A DNA stretch of 64,000 nucleotides from a virus: IMG/VR virus record IMGVR_UViG_3300031578_009495, positions 3,128 through 67,127 of that record; one strand, given 5' to 3'. The position numbers and the translations under genes were made by a program. Below are positions 9,548 through 18,662 of the stretch, in pieces. How positions within the stretch are numbered: position 1 is the first letter of the stretch; each line of letters opens with the position of its first letter. Below the pieces are notes generated by a model. The model was not told where the DNA came from and did not search any database. It saw only the letters and a program-made list of their open reading frames with translations.

Positions 9548-12319
9548 ATGGGAATCATCAATAATATAAAATCAGGATTAATAGGCAGAATAAAAAATCT
9601 GATAAGCAAAGGTGGTCAGGATATAGGTGGCGTAGATGGAATAAGTCAGGAAAAGCATTCGTCCGGAGACACAACCGAAATCGGCAGACATGGAGACGAA
9701 AGTGAAGGTACAGGAGCTGGTGATTTTTATTACAAAAAAATGATAGTTGAAAGAACCAGACTTGCATCGTATGTCGATTATGAATTAATGGATGCAGAGC
9801 ACCCAGAACTCTCTTCGAGCCTCGATGTATATTCTGATGTGGCTGTAGCTGGTGAAGAATCAGAAGATCAGCGATTTGCAATAGACAGCGAGGACGATAA
9901 AGTTAAGGAAGTTTTACAAGATATCAACAAACGAACCAGAATAGACCAGGAGCTATGGCCATTAACCCGCGATCTTTGCAAATACGGAGATGAGTTTGAA
10001 GAAATAGTGGTAAGCAGTGCCGGACTTATTGTCCGCCTTAAATCCCTCCCACAAAACGAAATGTTCCGGAATGAAGACAAATACGGCCTATTGCTTGAGG
10101 AAAGAGCTTTCGAACAAAAAGACACCCTTACGACAAAAGTTCTTGCACAATTTGAACCATGGCAGATAGCGCACTTTAGAAATAGGACGAGCAGAAAAGG
10201 ACAATATGGAAGCAGTATATTTTCACCAGCAAGAAGACTATTTAAACAACTTCAAATGATGGAAGATGGAATGATAGTTGGTCGGCTTGCAAGGTCCCAC
10301 ATGAGATATGTGTATAAGATAGACGTAGGAGAATTGCCACCACCAGAGGCCGAAGCTCACGTAGAAAGTGTGAAAAGACGAATAAAGAAAAAGCGCCGGC
10401 TGAATCCAATAACCGGAAAATTTGATGTCACCTCTAACCCTCTGAGCGCGGAAGAGGATATGTTTGTAGGGGTACGAACAGGAAGCCAAGCAGGAATCAC
10501 GAAACTTGAAGGAGCGAGTAGGCTGGATGCGATAAAGGATGTTGAATATTTTCAAAACAAAATGTTCACGGTTGTTAAGGTGCCGAAGTCTTATCTTGGA
10601 TTGGAAAAAGATGTATGTCTTGCTGGTGAAACAAAGATATCACTACTTGACGGAAGGGAAGTAGCGATTAAGGATCTCGTAGAGATGTATCCGGATGGAA
10701 AGAAATTCTATGTATATAGCATAGGGCCAGATAATGTTATGTCTGTGGGTGTGGCGCACAGTGCACGGCCTACAAGACGCAATGCAGAGATGGTTAAAGT
10801 TGTCTTAGATAATGGAGAATCTGTGCGCTGTACGCCAGATCATCTATGGATGAGAAGAGATGGAACGTATGTAATGGCTAAGAATTTGAGACCAGATGAT
10901 TCACTTATGCCATTGTATCGAAAAGTATCTGAAAAGGGTAAAAATCCTATCTATGGATATGAAATGTATAAAAATCCAAGGAGGGGAGCTTGGTGTTATA
11001 CGCATAGGATGGTTGGAAAATGGCTTGGAAGGCCTGAATTTCCCGACTGGACATATGGTGTTCAGCACCATGCAGATTTTAATAAAAGGAATAATTGCCC
11101 AACAAATATTGAATGGATGGAATTTTGGGATCATTTAAAACTTCATCAAGATAATGTCCATAGATTAAATACTCCAGAGATGAAGGCAAGAGCACGTATC
11201 GGAATAATAAATTCTGAAAAATTCAAGAAGAGATTGTTAGAATGGAATAAATGTGAAGAAAAGAGAGAAATATGCAAGCAAGCTATGCTTAAATATCACC
11301 AAGAAAATGATTTTACAGGTGAAAATAACCCGAATTATAAAACAGAACTAACCTTAGAAAAAATCATGAAAATGGTTAAAGAAGCATGTTGTTTAAACAG
11401 ATATGATATGGAGAAGCAATTCAAAATAACATATCCATTGCTTATTAGCAGATTGAAAAAAGAAGGAATGAGCTACAAAGAATTCGCCAATCAGTGTTTT
11501 ATTTATGGCTGGCAACATAAAGGCAATTTGTTTAATGATATTCCAATGGAAGGAATCATTGATCAGACAAGAGAAGGCATGCCATTGAAAAAGATAGCCA
11601 AAAGCTTTGAATGCTCTATAGATACTATCAGAAGAATCTGCCACGATCATGATGTTGATAATTTCAAAGATTTAAAAGAAGCCCCATTCAATCATAAGGT
11701 GGTATCTGTGGAACCTGATGGTATGGATGATATTACATATGACATAACAGTAGAAGGGTTAAATAATTTTGCCTTGAGTGTAGGCGTGTTTGTTCATAAT
11801 TCATCCAAGGCATTGCTTTCGAATCAGGATATTCAATTTTTACGTACCATAAGGCGCATCCAACATGTCACCCTAAAGAACGGTCTGAAAAAGATTTATG
11901 ATGTTGGATTATTACTTCAGGGATATGATTTAACGAAAGCAAAATACGAGATTCTTTTTCCCTCAGTGAAAACAGCGGACGAGGTCCGTAAATGGGAAAT
12001 CGAAAAGGCAAAAGCAGAAGCAGCAAAGATATATGGTCTTGACTTGAATGTAGTAACGGATGATTTTATACTCAGCTATTTCCTCGGGCTGTCGGATGAA
12101 GAAATAAAAGATTTGAATATAGTAAGAGAGAAAGAAACAGAAAAGGCAAAGAAAGCAGCCGATGTAGAGGCCGCAGCACAGATTGCAAAGGCACAGGCTG
12201 CTATTAAAGCTGGCGGTAAGGCAGAAGATACTATCAATCTTATGCGGACATTGAATGAATTAAAAGATGTTGTTGCAATGGAGCTTGAGGGAAAGAAATA
12301 TAACAGGCTGATAGAATAA
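9548..12319 (+). CDS. portal protein (T4 gp20-like), intein-containing
   Basis: IVERTRLASYVDYELMDAEHPELSSSLDVYSD, QIAHFR, MMEDGMIVGRLAR, VYKIDVGELPPPEAEAHV, EYFQNKMFTVVKVPKSYL, QFLRTIRRIQ. Confidence 0.9.
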   Translation: MGIINNIKSGLIGRIKNLISKGGQDIGGVDGISQEKHSSGDTTEIGRHGDESEGTGAGDFYYKKMIVERTRLASYVDYELMDAEHPELSSSLDVYSDVAVAGEESEDQRFAIDSEDDKVKEVLQDINKRTRIDQELWPLTRDLCKYGDEFEEIVVSSAGLIVRLKSLPQNEMFRNEDKYGLLLEERAFEQKDTLTTKVLAQFEPWQIAHFRNRTSRKGQYGSSIFSPARRLFKQLQMMEDGMIVGRLARSHMRYVYKIDVGELPPPEAEAHVESVKRRIKKKRRLNPITGKFDVTSNPLSAEEDMFVGVRTGSQAGITKLEGASRLDAIKDVEYFQNKMFTVVKVPKSYLGLEKDVCLAGETKISLLDGREVAIKDLVEMYPDGKKFYVYSIGPDNVMSVGVAHSARPTRRNAEMVKVVLDNGESVRCTPDHLWMRRDGTYVMAKNLRPDDSLMPLYRKVSEKGKNPIYGYEMYKNPRRGAWCYTHRMVGKWLGRPEFPDWTYGVQHHADFNKRNNCPTNIEWMEFWDHLKLHQDNVHRLNTPEMKARARIGIINSEKFKKRLLEWNKCEEKREICKQAMLKYHQENDFTGENNPNYKTELTLEKIMKMVKEACCLNRYDMEKQFKITYPLLISRLKKEGMSYKEFANQCFIYGWQHKGNLFNDIPMEGIIDQTREGMPLKKIAKSFECSIDTIRRICHDHDVDNFKDLKEAPFNHKVVSVEPDGMDDITYDITVEGLNNFALSVGVFVHNSSKALLSNQDIQFLRTIRRIQHVTLKNGLKKIYDVGLLLQGYDLTKAKYEILFPSVKTADEVRKWEIEKAKAEAAKIYGLDLNVVTDDFILSYFLGLSDEEIKDLNIVREKETEKAKKAADVEAAAQIAKAQAAIKAGGKAEDTINLMRTLNELKDVVAMELEGKKYNRLIE
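10616..11800 (+). mobile_element. 395-aa intein with HNH homing endonuclease
   Basis: block A CLAGETKISLLDG, block B VRCTPDHLW, HNH YTHRMV...HHADFNKRNNCPTNIEWM, block F YDITVEGLNNF, block G FVHN followed by Ser. Confidence 0.92.
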
Positions 12320-12332
12320 AAAATAACCGAAC

Positions 12333-12347
12333 TGCAATCAGATTGCA
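12333..12347. promoter_or_regulatory. palindromic operator-like site TGCAATCAGATTGCA
   Basis: perfect palindrome in the 63-bp gap after the portal gene. Confidence 0.6.
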
Positions 12348-12382: not shown

Positions 12383-13057
12383 ATGATTCAAGAACAAATC
12401 ATAACAACGATAGATGAGATACAAAAGCTCCTGGCAAAGACTTTGGTAATTGATGTTATTGCCGAAGGTGGCGCAGGTTCCGGCCACTGGGGGCACAAGG
12501 GCAGAAAGGGGCAAAGGGGCGGGAGTATTGGTGGTGGTGGAAAAGCTTTTAGACCAAAAGTTTTTTGGAAGCCTACAATGACAGCAGCAGAATCGTCACA
12601 ATGGTTTAAAAATAGTAAGCTTAAAGACACTTATATTCATGGGACAACAGAAGAGTCAGTGGAATCGATTAAGAAAAATGGATTTGATCTATCAAAGAAA
12701 AGATACGGAAGAGCTTATGGAGATGGCGTATATATGTCTTCCGAAGAGGAGGTACGCAAGAAGGGATTATCCTATGGATCTTCAAGATTAAGAATAAGAA
12801 TAAATGTAAAGAACCCTCTAATTGACATGGATGGATCCATAATGAACACCAACTCGTCTTTAGCTAATGAAATGGATGCATATGCAAAAAAACATAAGAT
12901 AGATATATATGCAAAAGAAAACGATACCGTTGCGTATAAGAAAAATGTAGTTTCAGTATACTTAAAGAAAAAAGGTTACGACTCCGTAGTGACAGAGGAA
13001 GAAGGAGCGCAGGTTGTAGTTGTTTTTAACCCAAAAAATGTAACAGTGTTAAAATAG
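12383..13057 (+). CDS. ADP-ribosyltransferase-fold (PARP-like) protein with N-terminal Gly-rich tag
   Basis: YIHGT..E.IKKNGF, YGDGVYMS, GYDSVV...VVVFNP; tag EGGAGSGHWGHKGRKGQRGGS. Confidence 0.7.
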   Translation: MIQEQIITTIDEIQKLLAKTLVIDVIAEGGAGSGHWGHKGRKGQRGGSIGGGGKAFRPKVFWKPTMTAAESSQWFKNSKLKDTYIHGTTEESVESIKKNGFDLSKKRYGRAYGDGVYMSSEEEVRKKGLSYGSSRLRIRINVKNPLIDMDGSIMNTNSSLANEMDAYAKKHKIDIYAKENDTVAYKKNVVSVYLKKKGYDSVVTEEEGAQVVVVFNPKNVTVLK

Positions 13058-13065
13058 GATTAACG

Positions 13066-14139
13066 ATGTTAAGTTGTAGATATTGTATTCATCTATTAGG
13101 AAAAGATAAAAAGAAAAGGGCTACAGTTTGCAAAGCATTTAATGACGGAATCCCTTTATCTATTTTAAGCGGAGAAATTAGCCATAATAAAAAACTTCCT
13201 ATACAAAACAATAATATAGTATTCGTAAAACTTCCCTCTACAAAAAAAGAGGAACTGATATCAGATATTATCACTTCCATCCTCGAAGGTTCAGCAGGAT
13301 CAGGTCATTGGGGGCACCGAGGACGTAAAGGACAAAAAGGAGGAAGTGTATCTGGTTTTACAGCAATGCCAGGAGAAAGAAAAGACTTACAGGCAGAGAT
13401 AAAAAAGAGAGGCTTAGTAATCCCGCCTATGTATAAAAATGTGAAGCTAAACATAGATCCGGAAGCAGGGTTACAAGCTACAGGTATCGACATGAAAGGG
13501 AGAGAACAACCTATATATTCGGCAAAGCATTGTGTAGAGGCAGATGCAGAAAAGTTTGCGAGACTTAAAGAATTTACGAAAGCAGTGCCAAAGTTACAGA
13601 AAAGGATAGAGGCAGATTTTGATAGTAACGATGGAGCAAAGGCACTATACTTGATTTCACAGACTGGGTTTAGAGTGGGTTCTAATAAGGACACGAAGGC
13701 AGCGGTAAAAGCTTATGGAGCTTCTACGCTTGAAGCTCGACATATTACCATGATATCTGAAAGTACGGTAAAGTTTAATTTTATAGGAAAAAAGGGTGTG
13801 GTTAACAGCGCAACCCTTACAGATAAAAAACTCGCGAAATACTGTAAAGATAAAAAGGCTGGAAAGGTATTCGATACAACCGACTCAAAAATAAGAAGGT
13901 ATCTGAAAAAGATAGATGGAGAATTTAAGGTAAAAGATTATAGGACTTTCATAGGAACATCAGAAGCGATAAAGGCTGTCAATTCTCTTCCAACCCCAAA
14001 AACAGGCAAAGAGCGGAGAGCAGGCATAATGCTTGTATGTAAGCAGGTTGCAAAGAAATTAGGAAACACTCCTGCGGTTGCAAGGTCTGCGTATATCGCA
14101 CCAGAGGTTTTCGATAGGTGGAACTACTGTGATAAATAA
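13066..14139 (+). CDS. DNA topoisomerase IB with N-terminal Cys/His domain and Gly-rich tag
   Basis: IPPMYKNV, LQATGIDMKGREQPIYS, catalytic residues FRVG(R), FIGKKG(K), KDYRT(R), LGNT(N), RSAYI(Y). Confidence 0.88.
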   Translation: MLSCRYCIHLLGKDKKKRATVCKAFNDGIPLSILSGEISHNKKLPIQNNNIVFVKLPSTKKEELISDIITSILEGSAGSGHWGHRGRKGQKGGSVSGFTAMPGERKDLQAEIKKRGLVIPPMYKNVKLNIDPEAGLQATGIDMKGREQPIYSAKHCVEADAEKFARLKEFTKAVPKLQKRIEADFDSNDGAKALYLISQTGFRVGSNKDTKAAVKAYGASTLEARHITMISESTVKFNFIGKKGVVNSATLTDKKLAKYCKDKKAGKVFDTTDSKIRRYLKKIDGEFKVKDYRTFIGTSEAIKAVNSLPTPKTGKERRAGIMLVCKQVAKKLGNTPAVARSAYIAPEVFDRWNYCDK

Positions 14140-15451
14140 AGAATCAATAGATCTTATGAATGAGTTTGTCGGCGGGGTTCTGTATGTAGGAGAAGTCCGG
14201 GACTGGACAAAGGTGAAAGAAACGTATGAGTCTCCTGATGATGATGGTAGCGGTGGGTGGCCATTTGAACTTGTTTCTGAGGAACTTGATGAGGGCGGAG
14301 CTGGCTCAATCAAAGAAACCAAATCATACGGAAAGCGTAAAAAGGTTTACAAAGCAAAGGGGTCACTAACAGCAGCGGCCAGGGAACTTGCAACACCTGA
14401 AGGAGTATTACAAGCAAAAGCAAAAGCGTTTGTTGGATATGCCAAGATGGAGGCCGGAGTTGAAAAACGAGTAGTTGGTATTATGAACCAATATGATGCC
14501 GGCAAGATAGACATAGGCCAGCTTGAGTGGGGACTTAAAAAAGAGCTTGGAGTGGCGTATAGAGATGCTTATTCGCTTGGTCAGCAGTCGGTCGGTTTCT
14601 CAGGTGATTTAATGGATGAGGATATGGCTTTTATTAGAAGCTTTAAGAGGACTGAGAATAAATTTCTTGGTAATTTTATGAAAGCTATAGCTACTGATAA
14701 ATTGGTCATGGAAAAATATAGACGCCTGGACATGTATGTAAAAACTATACGATCTGTGTTCGATCATGCGCGGGTAGAGGCGGCCCCTGACTGGATTAAG
14801 ATTTACTGGACGCCGTCAAGAGGAAGTCAGCATTGCACGGATTGCATGTATTTGGCTATAAACTCACCTTATACAAAAGAAACACTTCCGACAACGCCTA
14901 GAGCTGGAGATACATTATGCGTCTCGCGCTGTGCGTGCAGACTTATGCTAAGATACAAAAAACCAAAAGAAGGCGCAGAAGGTCCAGAGCCGGAAGAAGA
15001 ACTGCCGGGCGAGAAACCACCAGGTGAAGAATATCTCGTCCATCCAGACCTGTATGATAAATTCAAAGGAGACGTGCCAGAGTTTCGCTATTTTATGGAC
15101 AAGAACATAGGCAATCCGATTGCAGCAAGAAAAGAATTTGTAGCCGCAGTAAATAAGGCCGGAGTAGGTTTTGCTCCATCGAATTATGAAGATCCTTTTA
15201 ATTCTAAATTCTTCAAATCAAATAAGCTTTGGATAGACATACAAAACATAAAAGGAATAGAATCAAATCTTCCATTTGACAGCCCTGAAGGAATATTGAC
15301 AAGAAAGAAGCGGCAGGCATTAATGCAAGACCTGTTTAATGCAAACAAAGAGTTAAAAAAGAGCGGACTTCGCTGGATAAGACCTGATGGATATGGAGGA
15401 TATTCTGTTGGAATGGATGGTAGTCCTGTTACGCTTATGCCGAAAGGTTAA
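14129..15451 (+). CDS. head morphogenesis / MuF (SPP1 gp7)-like minor head protein
   Basis: IYWTPSRGSQHCTDC...PRAGDTLCVSRCACRL Cys motif; position after portal; probable GTG start 14129 (track 14078). Confidence 0.6.
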   Translation: MINKESIDLMNEFVGGVLYVGEVRDWTKVKETYESPDDDGSGGWPFELVSEELDEGGAGSIKETKSYGKRKKVYKAKGSLTAAARELATPEGVLQAKAKAFVGYAKMEAGVEKRVVGIMNQYDAGKIDIGQLEWGLKKELGVAYRDAYSLGQQSVGFSGDLMDEDMAFIRSFKRTENKFLGNFMKAIATDKLVMEKYRRLDMYVKTIRSVFDHARVEAAPDWIKIYWTPSRGSQHCTDCMYLAINSPYTKETLPTTPRAGDTLCVSRCACRLMLRYKKPKEGAEGPEPEEELPGEKPPGEEYLVHPDLYDKFKGDVPEFRYFMDKNIGNPIAARKEFVAAVNKAGVGFAPSNYEDPFNSKFFKSNKLWIDIQNIKGIESNLPFDSPEGILTRKKRQALMQDLFNANKELKKSGLRWIRPDGYGGYSVGMDGSPVTLMPKG

Positions 15452-15659
15452 TAATGTCAGACCAATCTAAATAGTTAGTTCCTTGGAAAATAGAGACCAA
15501 ACCCACCCAAAAGTCCTTGACTTAACCCCTACATGTAGTATTTCTTAGACATTAATAGCATATTTTCAGTTCGGCCACCCCATGGCCGCCCCAGGTAGGA
15601 AGTGGAGGAATGCCTCGCCTCCCTTCCTACCATATAAATTTAATTGGAGGAGGAAAAGA

Positions 15660-16247
15660 ATGCCATATTCAAGCCTATCGGCAGCAAGTAAAGCAGGAGC
15701 GATAACAACATTTCGTAAAAGTCCAATGTCACTGGACGCTGTAAATAAGCTTTACAGTATTTATGATGCGCTTAAGGCAGACAAGAAAATATCCAACCCC
15801 ATGTCTGTAGCAATGACAACCTGGAAGGGAACGGTTGCGCTTAAGAATGGTGTTTGGCTTTTAAAGGCTATGCCTAAAAAAGAAAGCAAGAAACAGAAAC
15901 GTGGAAAGACTGAATCAATTGGAGGTTATCCGGAAAGAACAGCGGCAACCTCACTGCCTATGCCTGCTGGGTCTTTGAAAATGGGCGACGGAAGCATGGA
16001 ATCGTTTAAGAACATGCTTAGAGATGCCCTGCTAGTATTATACGGCAAGCAATCGGTATATATTATTGGAACCTATCGAACAAAAGTGGTTATTGAGGTA
16101 TATGCTGACAATAAAGAAACCTACTATGAATTGCCATATACGATAAAGAATGGAAGTTTTAATTTTGGAACACCTGTAAAAGTTATGAAGCTTACCACAT
16201 ACCAGAAGGCTGAACAGAAAAGACTTAAAAAAGAGGTCTTGCAATGA
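15660..16247 (+). CDS. hypothetical head-module protein
   Basis: strong SD GGAGGAGG before ATG 15660; weak ChaB-like MPYSS...KNGVW pattern. Confidence 0.55.
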   Translation: MPYSSLSAASKAGAITTFRKSPMSLDAVNKLYSIYDALKADKKISNPMSVAMTTWKGTVALKNGVWLLKAMPKKESKKQKRGKTESIGGYPERTAATSLPMPAGSLKMGDGSMESFKNMLRDALLVLYGKQSVYIIGTYRTKVVIEVYADNKETYYELPYTIKNGSFNFGTPVKVMKLTTYQKAEQKRLKKEVLQ

Positions 16248-17470
16248 ATAAGCTAATTGAAACAACCGAATGTACATTAGATGTTCTTGAAGAAGAGGAA
16301 TTGTCTGAAAAGGGTAAAGTTGTAAAACCAATGCGAATAGGGGGTGTTGCTTCAAGGGGAAATGTCACCAACGAGAACGGAAGATATTATAAAACGTCAC
16401 TATGGGAGCGAGAGTCTAATAGGTTGCAGGACTCTGTAAATAAGGGCGGCCTGCTTGGCTCGCTTGACCACCCGAATGACGGAAAGGGAAAGCTCAAAGA
16501 AACCGCTATTAAGTTTACTAAACTTTTTATGGATAAAGACTTTCTGAAATTCGAAGGCAACGTGCTTGAGACAAGAGCAGGGAAAGACCTAAAAGCACTT
16601 CTTACCGGTCAAGTGAAAGTCGAAATCAGTACCAGGGGTTTAGGTAGCACAAAAGAGGAAAAGATAAATGGTTCAACCGTAAGCGTTATTCAAGATGATT
16701 TCCGGTTGACAGCAATAGATGTAGTTTCCGGTCACAGCAATACAGACGCGGAAATTCAATATTTCAAAGAAAGAAAAACAGAAAACGAAGGAGGGAATAA
16801 CATGAAAATCGATGAGTTAAGAGAAAAGCATCCGGAACTCGTTGCTATTATAGTAAAAGAGACAGAAGATCGTGTAAGCAAAGAAGTAACGGAGAAGCTT
16901 ACAAAGACCTTCGAGGAGAAGGTCATTGACGAGATCTCTAAAACCCGTACCGAAATGACCGCTGAAATTACAAAAACTGTTACCGAAGAGCTTATGCCAG
17001 AGCACGAAGAGAATCAGGCCAAGCTTGTGGAAATTGCAGACATTGTAAGTGGCCTGATCGAAGACAATCCCACTCCAGACAAAAAGGACGAGGAGTTTAA
17101 AGTCCTTGAGAAAAAGCTCACAGAATCCACCACAAAAATGGACAAACTTGTAGCGGATCTGAAAACAGCGCAGGGCAAGATTTCTCATGCCGAAGTCAAA
17201 GAGTATATTGACGAGACCCTAAAGAACGAACCTTTTAAGGTTGTTTTGAAAGAGAGGCTCGCACTTTGCCTATCCAAGGAAGAGGTTGATAAACAGCTTC
17301 CAAAGGAAAAAGAATACGTCCAGAAAATAGTTCAGGAAAGCGGAATGCCAAAAGGCAAAGGCGAAACCTTGAACGATAACGACAAAGATGCAAAGACCAA
17401 AGAACAGCTCGACGAAGACAAAAAGAGACAGCGAAGACTTGCCGGAATACCAGAGCCGGAAGACAAATAA
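16244..17470 (+). CDS. prohead protease (T4 gp21-like) fused to a coiled-coil scaffold domain
   Basis: NENGRYY, LGSLDHP (His), ISTRGLGS (Ser), DFRLTAIDVV; charged coiled-coil C-terminal half. Confidence 0.9.
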   Translation: MNKLIETTECTLDVLEEEELSEKGKVVKPMRIGGVASRGNVTNENGRYYKTSLWERESNRLQDSVNKGGLLGSLDHPNDGKGKLKETAIKFTKLFMDKDFLKFEGNVLETRAGKDLKALLTGQVKVEISTRGLGSTKEEKINGSTVSVIQDDFRLTAIDVVSGHSNTDAEIQYFKERKTENEGGNNMKIDELREKHPELVAIIVKETEDRVSKEVTEKLTKTFEEKVIDEISKTRTEMTAEITKTVTEELMPEHEENQAKLVEIADIVSGLIEDNPTPDKKDEEFKVLEKKLTESTTKMDKLVADLKTAQGKISHAEVKEYIDETLKNEPFKVVLKERLALCLSKEEVDKQLPKEKEYVQKIVQESGMPKGKGETLNDNDKDAKTKEQLDEDKKRQRRLAGIPEPEDK

Positions 17471-17537: not shown

Positions 17538-18662
17538 ATGAAAGGACTAATGCCAGACCAGAATCCTTTTATTGACATCGGCGCCAGGCGTGAAAGATGG
17601 GCGCACCTTACAGAAGGGATTGTAGCTTTAGGTAAGCACGATCCGGACGGCGGTGTGCATAGAAGAATATGCTCAGAAATTCTATTAGACAATTCAAAGT
17701 GGCATATGGAAACCACCCCATCGGCAAGCGTGGCGGCCGCGGCCCCGTATATTTTTCCGATGGTAAGACGTATTTTTCCGAAGTTGATTGCGAATGAACT
17801 TGTATCTGTTCAGCCAATGAGCCGACCCGATGGTAAAGTATTCTATCTTGACTTTTACCGGAATGCAACTCCAGGGACAAGAGAAGATACCGATGATGTG
17901 GCATCAAGCATTGATGAAGATTATGCAGATCGTGCCGGTGGTGAAAGTTCTGCTGTCGCAGAGATCACGTTCAAGATCACCAGCGCCACAGTTACCGCAA
18001 AGCAGAAAGCCTTGAAAGCAAAGTGGGAAATTGAAACACAGCAGGACCTCAAAGCCTATCATGGTGAAGACGCTGAAAATATTCTGATGTCTGTCTGCGG
18101 TGATGAAATTGTACGGGAGACCGATCAGGAAATTATACTGGATATTGAAACCAATGTTGGTGCCGGAAATGTGAACTGGGTATATACTGTACCTACCACT
18201 GGTGCATATTCAACATTAGACCCAAAGGTTTACAAGGAAACGCTGTACGATGCAATTACCGATTGCAATAACCTTATCTTCAAAAAGGTTTATCGGAATG
18301 CAACCTGGATTATAGCTGATCCTGATACATGCGCACGCCTCGAGAAACTTGAAAAGTTCAAGCTGTTTGAGGGAGCCGATGACATGACCCAGAATATCGG
18401 TGTTATCAGATTCGGCACGCTTGCACAGAAGTACAAAGTTTACAAACATCCATGGTTTACTGCCAACAAGATCCTTATGGGATACAAGGGCACATCGTGG
18501 ATTGAGACCGGTTATGTTTATTCACCTTACATCCCGCTTTGGGTAACTCCGCTGATCCTGGATCCGAATGATTTTACGCCGAGACGTGGCGTAATGACAA
18601 GATTTGCCAAGCAAATGGTAAACGGTAATTTCTTTGGAACGGTTACATTAGCAGCGAGCTAA
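17538..18662 (+). CDS. major capsid protein (T4 gp23-like, compact)
   Basis: RRIFPKLIANELVSVQPMSRPDGKVFYL, ALKAKWEIETQQDLKAYHG, GYVYSPYIPL, FTPRRGVMTRFA. Confidence 0.93.
   Translation: MKGLMPDQNPFIDIGARRERWAHLTEGIVALGKHDPDGGVHRRICSEILLDNSKWHMETTPSASVAAAAPYIFPMVRRIFPKLIANELVSVQPMSRPDGKVFYLDFYRNATPGTREDTDDVASSIDEDYADRAGGESSAVAEITFKITSATVTAKQKALKAKWEIETQQDLKAYHGEDAENILMSVCGDEIVRETDQEIILDIETNVGAGNVNWVYTVPTTGAYSTLDPKVYKETLYDAITDCNNLIFKKVYRNATWIIADPDTCARLEKLEKFKLFEGADDMTQNIGVIRFGTLAQKYKVYKHPWFTANKILMGYKGTSWIETGYVYSPYIPLWVTPLILDPNDFTPRRGVMTRFAKQMVNGNFFGTVTLAAS

Follow-up and report, generated by a model that had tools for sequence, protein, structure and literature searches.

Why should an ADP-ribosyltransferase (ART) and a topoisomerase IB, encoded side by side among the head genes of an uncultured phage, carry the same 20-residue glycine-rich segment directly behind a site that resembles those cut by the prohead protease of phage T4? 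The stretch in question, hereafter the window, comprises 64,000 nucleotides (nt) of the 94-kb virus record IMGVR_UViG_3300031578_009495, and coordinates given without a locus name are window positions. Four open reading frames (ORFs) lie between a T4-type portal gene (9548–12319) and the gene for an S77 prohead protease (16244–17470), with a Gp23-type capsid gene next. The first two appear to follow a common plan: an N-terminal leader ending in an (I/L)-x-E site, the 20-residue segment, which we call the tag, and an enzyme as payload. We propose that leader, cut site and tag make up a cassette for effectors that are packaged in the capsid and processed by the prohead protease, and we put the probability of this reading at roughly 60%. 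The elements of the two genes are the following:

12383–12466, + strand: leader A of the ART gene, 28 amino acids (aa), MIQEQII...VIAE, ending in I-x-E; the same leader occurs on other payloads
12467–12526, + strand: tag copy 1, GGAGSGHWGHKGRKGQRGGS, a member of the profiled tag family
12527–13057, + strand: ADP-ribosyltransferase payload (ART-PolyVal; PF18760 at aa 86–219)
13066–13287, + strand: composite leader of the topoisomerase gene, consisting of a Cys-rich domain (aa 3–45) and leader B, KLPSTKKEELISDIITSILE, ending in I-x-E
13288–13347, + strand: tag copy 2, GSAGSGHWGHRGRKGQKGGS
13348–14139, + strand: topoisomerase IB payload (PF01028, E = 4e-25; 71% identity to P0230)

The tag has the form GG/GS-AGSGHWGH-x-GRKGQ-x-GGS in the window, and stands immediately behind VIAE in the ART protein and SILE in the topoisomerase protein. 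Taken together with the preceding Glu, the two copies are identical at 18 of 21 residues and at 44 of 63 nucleotides. Ten of the 18 conserved residues are encoded by different codons, and the flanking sequences match at 8–11 of 30, which is the random level. The codon divergence and the random-level flanks indicate that the tag is conserved at the protein level. (A DNA-level function of the tag was rejected on account of the codon divergence between the two copies.) A six-frame scan found the full tag at these two sites only in the 64 kb, and it occurs nowhere else in the 94-kb record. The first-pass annotation of this DNA had placed both tags correctly, including their sequences and the 18/21 agreement, and had argued for conservation at the protein level; its identification of the two payloads also holds. 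The ART gene (12383–13057, 224 aa) scored 33.7 bits, against a Pfam cut-off of 31.2, for PF18760, the ART-PolyVal signature domain of polyvalent proteins. The topoisomerase IB gene (13066–14139, 357 aa) matched the PF01028 catalytic core at aa 158–341, and its PF21338 N-domain, at 26.9 bits, fell slightly below the Pfam cut-off of 27.

An indication that the tag marks a processing site comes from the residue directly before it, here denoted P1. Per-position identity was calculated for 183 tag copies from 59 contigs. At positions P10–P5, identity was 0.08–0.17 within a phage and 0.06–0.07 between phages; the corresponding values were 0.22 and 0.11 at P4, 0.32 and 0.09 at P3, 0.22 and 0.09 at P2, and 0.79 and 0.15 at P1. 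In an independent shuffle control for P1, the observed value was 0.80, whereas 2000 shuffles averaged 0.16 and never exceeded 0.25. Because the peak is confined to P1 and P3, it cannot be explained by duplication of whole leaders. In these alignments, the position before the tag behaves like the P1 subsite of a protease. The residue itself differs from phage to phage: among 245 copies, Lys was found 71 times, Asp 50, Leu 28, Arg 26 and Glu 20, and Asn also occurs in some phages. In phages with an S77 protease, P1 was Glu at all 16 tag sites and P3 was Leu or Ile at 14 of them, with Phe at the other two. The VIAE and SILE sites of the window fit this pattern, consistent with the T4-type (I/L)-x-E site suggested in the first-pass annotation, and we propose that the S77 protease is the enzyme that would cut after Glu.

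P1 was also compared with the head maturation gene in 94 records. S77 was found in E-type records only (P1 = Glu), namely the window, G001 and G002 (3/3), while S78, the HK97-type protease, was found in four records, all of them K-type (4/4). The HK97 protease cuts after Lys. Strong matches to DUF2213 (E ≤ 1e-32) were obtained for each of the 17 D-type records tested and for no record of type K, R, E or N; matches that were weaker and partial fell mostly in Leu/Ala-type records. Hypergeometric estimates, which ignore relatedness, were ≈1e-3 for the association of S77 with E and ≈8e-3 for that of S78 with K. Judged by these profile matches, P1 follows the family of the head maturation gene in all 24 records in which one was recognized.

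The DUF2213 proteins (PF09979) occupy the protease/scaffold position in G013–G023, G045, G048, G055, G056, G062, G064 and G065 (loci L317–L324). They have invariant His, Ser and His residues followed by a scaffold-like tail, and match Pa193 gp24 (PDB 9B40), which has been described as a putative scaffolding protein that may undergo cleavage. Comparison of the DUF2213 proteins with the S77 domain by hhalign revealed no relation. DUF2213 may represent an uncharacterized family of prohead proteases that cut after Asp.

Leaders and payloads are found in different combinations. Four proteins found with the ART protein as query (P0003–P0006) share a 48-residue leader plus tag that is ≈63–77% identical, followed by four unrelated payloads. 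Leader A plus tag is thus fused to at least six unrelated payloads: the ART, the payloads of P0003–P0006 and the topoisomerase IB of locus L315. Conversely, a homologous ART in P0002 is found behind a different leader and a tag preceded by Lys (K|tag), and two different leaders precede the topoisomerase payload. The L315 topoisomerase (P0230) is 66% identical to the window ART protein over leader and tag, and 71% identical to the window topoisomerase from the tag onward. P0230 is in effect the ART leader and tag joined to a topoisomerase payload, which demonstrates that modules were exchanged at the tag. In G001 (L182), three genes share a near-identical leader, ...IKDISSEVLT-x-LFE, followed by the tag; a fourth has the leader and no tag, and two longer ORFs contain internal tags. 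The modular leader-plus-tag on interchangeable payloads foreseen in the first-pass annotation is thereby borne out, with one leader on six payloads, one payload behind two leaders, and the junction at the tag.

The tag-bearing genes are linked to head genes, as the same annotation had expected. The order portal, cargo genes, S77 protease and capsid protein is found in the window and in L181, L182 and L315; in L315/L316, the complete order is portal, topoisomerase IB, portal-adjacent protein, small conserved protein, S77 protease and Gp23. The linkage extends to HK97-type and other phages. Locus L024 encodes a terminase, an HK97-type portal, an ART-like ORF with two tags, a further two-tag ORF that includes an S78 domain, and an HK97-type capsid protein, whereas L041 has a portal, a MuF-K|tag ORF and then S78. 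In 17 of 19 records (22–113 kb), a tag lies within 6 kb of a MuF domain. The S78 protease ORF of L024 (L024 1788–3956, − strand) holds two K|tag sites followed by further domains. From its sequence, it could be an S78 protease fused to cargo that is released by self-processing.

How widespread is the tag? Its general form is GGxGSG[NH]xGHxGR[PK]GxxGGS. Degenerate DNA patterns matched at least 116 loci in IMG/VR for GHxGRPGxxGGS and 64 loci for GHxGRKGxxGGS, often several per contig, while the exact window-type DNA pattern had no IMG/VR match. A profile built from 112 tag copies matched 6,794 protein cluster representatives at E ≤ 1e-3, 1,047 at E ≤ 1e-10 and 189 at E ≤ 1e-30. Nearly all carriers are uncultured phages, and all 82 word-search matches were metagenomic. 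When 50,697 cultured phage records were searched by tblastn with the leader plus tag and with a D-type cargo protein, nothing matched, Faecalibacterium phage FP_Brigit, the closest cultured relative of the D-type group, lacks the tag, and no cultured tag carrier was found in our searches of cultured phage records. In reference bacterial genomes, 4 of 120 pattern matches were true tags; the other 116 were rejected as chance G-rich matches. There is no Pfam, NCBIfam or PHROGs model of the tag, and literature searches on the motif strings found no publication that describes it.

Tags sit either behind short N-terminal leaders or at domain borders inside polyvalent effector proteins. Of 167 ORFs, 97 have their first tag no more than 60 aa from the ORF start, and among 154 complete ORFs just 2 terminate within 25 aa of the last tag. 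A payload thus nearly always comes after the tag, which indicates that each tag goes with the payload that follows it. Among 140 non-redundant payload segments there were 13 ADP-ribosyltransferases, and topoisomerase IB, zeta toxin, MuF, DUF3626, GNAT, Ntox50, CdiA_C and PBECR2 domains were also found, while ≈100 had no Pfam match; effector-like payloads also include zeta-toxin kinases, ParB and 2H. Such diversity of payloads, together with the 6,794 clusters and the head-gene synteny, is what the profile search proposed in the first-pass annotation was meant to look for. Up to ≈10 tag copies occur in a single protein, and such proteins reach 3,154 aa. Proteins with multiple copies are of the polyvalent kind; their domains are ParB, GNAT, zeta toxin, 2H, PI3/4-kinase-like and ART-PolyVal. 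Phage-type polyvalent proteins combine two to fifteen effector domains in one polypeptide, as do P0007, P0009 and P0014, whereas the window proteins have one payload each. Some leaders are only 8–13 residues long (e.g., MK-x-T-x-R-x-K|GG) and match the T4 capsid targeting sequence in length. Since it is used with several types of protease, the tag is not a T4-specific device.

These observations suggest the following mechanism. The amphipathic leader would draw the protein into the core of the assembling prohead, like the T4 capsid targeting sequence, and we propose that leader A is such a capsid-targeting propeptide. The S77 prohead protease would then cleave behind the Glu, as the sequence patterns suggest. 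The mature enzyme, with the tag at its N-terminus, would be kept in the capsid, ejected with the DNA and act early in the host, by analogy with T4 Alt. In other phages, the same tag after Lys, Asp, Arg, Leu or Asn would be matched to their own maturation machinery, and giant polyvalent effector proteins would be cut between domains into tagged units. The tag may present the site to the protease or, once exposed at the new N-terminus, may signal retention or ejection. On the cassette reading, the thousands of tag-marked proteins of uncultured phages probably travel in the capsid and enter the host by injection, and a simple sequence rule would name the proteins that these phages bring into the cell with their DNA. 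It would provide a large catalog of early host-takeover or counter-defense effectors, ≈70% of which have no known domain, a direct read-out of cleavage specificity for poorly known families of prohead proteases, and a compact cassette for loading foreign proteins into capsids beyond T4. Poxvirus topoisomerase IB is encapsidated, and a virion-borne phage topoisomerase IB would parallel that enzyme.

In T4, the capsid targeting sequence is combined with the gp21 cleavage motif (L/I)-x-E, and the propeptide is interchangeable between payloads (PMC9026906); an LPE motif in a disordered loop is required for the response of the cyclic-oligonucleotide-based antiphage signaling system (CBASS) to T4 gp21 (PMC12991175). 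The window resembles the T4 system of IPI–III and Alt in the N-terminal propeptide ending in (L/I)-x-E, the S77 protease and the Gp23-type capsid protein, as well as in the interchangeability of the propeptide and in a cargo that includes an ADP-ribosyltransferase, as T4 Alt is. However, the leaders here are 20–76 aa long, compared to 10 aa in T4, and the conserved 20-residue tag behind the site, which would stay on the mature protein, has no counterpart in T4. The same tag, moreover, is also found with non-T4 maturation systems. In phiKZ and SPN3US, a prohead protease related to that of T4 cleaves many of the packaged proteins behind a Glu before their ejection (PMC9026906; PMC10052503). The motif there is S/A-x-E, and no downstream tag common to these proteins is reported. 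The window phage is not a phiKZ-like jumbo phage.

The polyvalent proteins described by Iyer, Burroughs, Anand, de Souza and Aravind (2017; PMC5512222) have the same set of payloads (ART-PolyVal, ParB, zeta toxin, GNAT, 2H, PBECR and MuF), a late or head-gene context and a proposed delivery by the virion, and our multi-tag proteins belong to this polyvalent class. The words “glycine” and “linker” do not occur in that paper, which describes no glycine-rich motif and assigns processing to metallopeptidase (MPTase) domains. In the proteins studied here, by contrast, the domains are bounded by a defined tag whose upstream residue follows the type of prohead protease, and the window proteins have a single payload. 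Our reading, if true, would call for a revision of the current view, in which metallopeptidase domains of the polyvalent proteins themselves do the processing. A third comparison is with the MuF polymorphic toxins of temperate phages (Jamet et al. 2017), in which effector domains are attached to a portal-adjacent head morphogenesis protein (PMC5576092); no linker or cleavage motif was described for these. Several tag ORFs do have a MuF-tag-payload arrangement (L004, L041), but the portal-adjacent protein of the window is not detectably MuF, and the tag is nearly absent from reference bacterial genomes.

Several points weigh against the proposed cassette. Packaging, cleavage and ejection are inferred from analogy with T4 and from comparative patterns, and the associations between P1 and protease are not phylogenetically independent. 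No S77 protease was detected in the complete E-type phage L148/G003, and profile searches found no S77, S78 or ClpP protease in most of the tag-bearing records. In T1-like phages, DUF2213 is a “head maturation protease” by automatic or author annotation only. Structure prediction was of little help: the predicted complex of the S77 protease domain with leader and tag had a score of 0.08, which is evidence neither way, and the AlphaFold models of the ART protein and the portal-adjacent protein, with predicted local distance difference test scores (pLDDT) of 33 and 47, respectively, were too poor for fold searches. The tag of the L315 topoisomerase (L315 7078–8001) has Val for the otherwise invariant Arg (GVKG, not GRKG), so that this Arg is not absolutely required. 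Finally, a role in cleavage alone does not account for the near-invariant His/Arg/Gly pattern of the tag, and likewise leaves unexplained the similarity of its variable positions within a phage (0.86 within versus 0.47 between phages at t7, and 0.64 versus 0.27 at t8).

L148 belongs with L167, L170 and L175 to a group in which the tag starts with a variant, E-[VAS]-GTASSGD..., after L-R-E, and in which S77 is not detectable. A different Glu-specific enzyme may act in this group.

The tag may bind a partner. In a broader version of the cassette reading, which is possible but which we hold only tentatively and would not bet on, the tag is a near-universal address label for capsid cargo of tailed phages, which a conserved partner would recognize and which works together with a cut site specific to each phage. 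Any protein with a leader, P1 and tag would then be loaded, trimmed and injected, and the partner could be the shell interior, the portal channel or the packaged DNA. P1 would predict the specificities of several prohead protease families, for example Asp in the case of DUF2213 and Arg, Leu and Asn in the case of families that are as yet unrecognized.

Alternatively, the tag rather than the leader could be the capsid-loading or retention signal, binding a conserved partner (such as the inside of the HK97-fold shell, the portal or the packaged DNA) in the way that the cargo-loading peptides of encapsulins attach to their shell, while the preceding residue would only mark where upstream sequence is trimmed. 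The tag is indeed far more conserved than any leader and is common to phages with different protease types, and each internal domain of the polyvalent proteins has its own tag. The resemblance of t7 and t8 within a phage would be expected from coevolution with a phage-encoded partner, and the G-R-P/K core is loosely similar to AT-hook DNA-binding peptides. However, leaders are also conserved within a genome and travel with the tag, and gene conversion between copies could produce the same within-phage similarity. We consider this alternative unlikely.

The scarcity of recognizable prohead proteases in tag-bearing records could also mean that the tag marks sites cut by another enzyme, such as a metallopeptidase of the cargo or polyvalent proteins or a host protease, or that cutting takes place only after injection. 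The assignment of polyvalent protein processing to MPTase domains (PMC5512222) points the same way, as do the HExxH-like motif in P0004, a cargo protein behind leader A, and the existence of metallopeptidase-like payloads (ATLF, DUF6782). On the other hand, P1 follows the head maturation family wherever one is recognized (24/24 records), the E sites fit the T4 gp21 motif including P3, and a Pfam search found no metallopeptidase in the cargo block of the window. This makes a protease other than the prohead enzyme distinctly improbable. The idea that the tag is a flexible linker or domain boundary that aids recombination and folding, with no role in targeting or cleavage, has in its favor the Gly-rich composition, the location between domains, the cassette-exchange junctions at the tag and a sequence in the third gene that resembles a recombination scar, but is very improbable, since a passive linker needs neither an invariant His/Arg/Gly spacing in thousands of proteins nor a phage-specific residue exactly one position upstream, and the window copies, which differ in 10 of 18 conserved codons, offer poor DNA-level homology.

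The third gene of the block (14156–15451) had been listed in the first-pass annotation as another carrier of the shared tag and as MuF-like. The MuF label was not supported, and sharing of the tag, confirmed for the ART and topoisomerase genes, holds weakly for the third. The short motif G[SG]AGS occurs three times in a six-frame scan of the 64 kb, once in each of the three genes, and in the third the five residues GGAGS (14294–14308) after ELDE are all that is present of the tag. An alignment with the orthologues in L001 and L181 showed that the conserved body of the protein starts eight residues past GGAGS, at IKE|TKSYGKR. In three phages, this body begins exactly after (I/L)-x-E, behind leaders that are unrelated to each other. 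The closest orthologue, P0229, has the same type of leader and no GGAGS, and GGAGS was accordingly rejected as a functional third tag. Residues 38–72 of the topoisomerase leader are 49% identical to the leader of the portal-adjacent protein of L001, the orthologue of the third protein. The simplest history suggested by this resemblance is that GGAGS is a scar of a tag-topoisomerase cassette that was inserted at the cleavage site of the third gene. The gene for the third protein follows the portal directly in L181, and with one or two cargo genes in between in the window, in L001 and in L315. As to MuF, the third protein had no Pfam match even at E ≤ 1, hhalign against 12 genuine MuF proteins gave a probability of 2%, and no PF04233 match was found in G000; a MuF identity was thus rejected.

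The remaining features of the head block are listed here:

9548–12319, + strand: T4-type portal protein (PF07230, E = 4e-49), the upstream border of the cargo block
Within 9548–12319, + strand: portal intein with HNH endonuclease, aa 364–751 (PF14890; PHROG HNH matches)
14156–15451, + strand: conserved portal-adjacent head protein, 431 aa (phrog_24776), with a variable 54-aa leader and a conserved body from 14318
15582–16247, + strand: small conserved head-module protein, located between cargo block and protease in all four relatives
16244–17470, + strand: S77 (T4 gp21-type) prohead protease (PF03420, E = 6e-15; phrog_207)
17538–18662, + strand: Gp23-type major capsid protein (PF07068, E = 1e-63)

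The S77 protease has a long, charged C-terminal extension that is scaffold-like in appearance, and the His of its DHP motif and the Ser of S-x-RG are invariant across three relatives. The small ORF at 15582–16247 has homologues in the same position in L001, L181 and L315, and its product has no family match in Pfam, PHROGs or NCBIfam. Its true start is probably the Met at 15660 (MPYSSLS...).

The first ≈45 residues of the topoisomerase ORF (13066–13200) form a small Cys-rich CxxC...C...H module. Residues 3–45 resemble a stand-alone 68-aa ORF of L004 (E = 9e-9), and this Cys-rich gene (L004 3174–3380) adjoins a tagged ART gene in an unrelated phage. The portal of L001 (L001 1–2394) also has an intein, at a different, N-terminal site, whereas the portals of L181 and L315 have none. 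The different sites in the window and L001 portals point to independent invasions of one gene. A palindrome, TGCAATCAGATTGCA, occupies 12333–12347 in the interval that separates the portal gene from the cargo block, and lies 36 nt upstream of the start codon of the ART gene.

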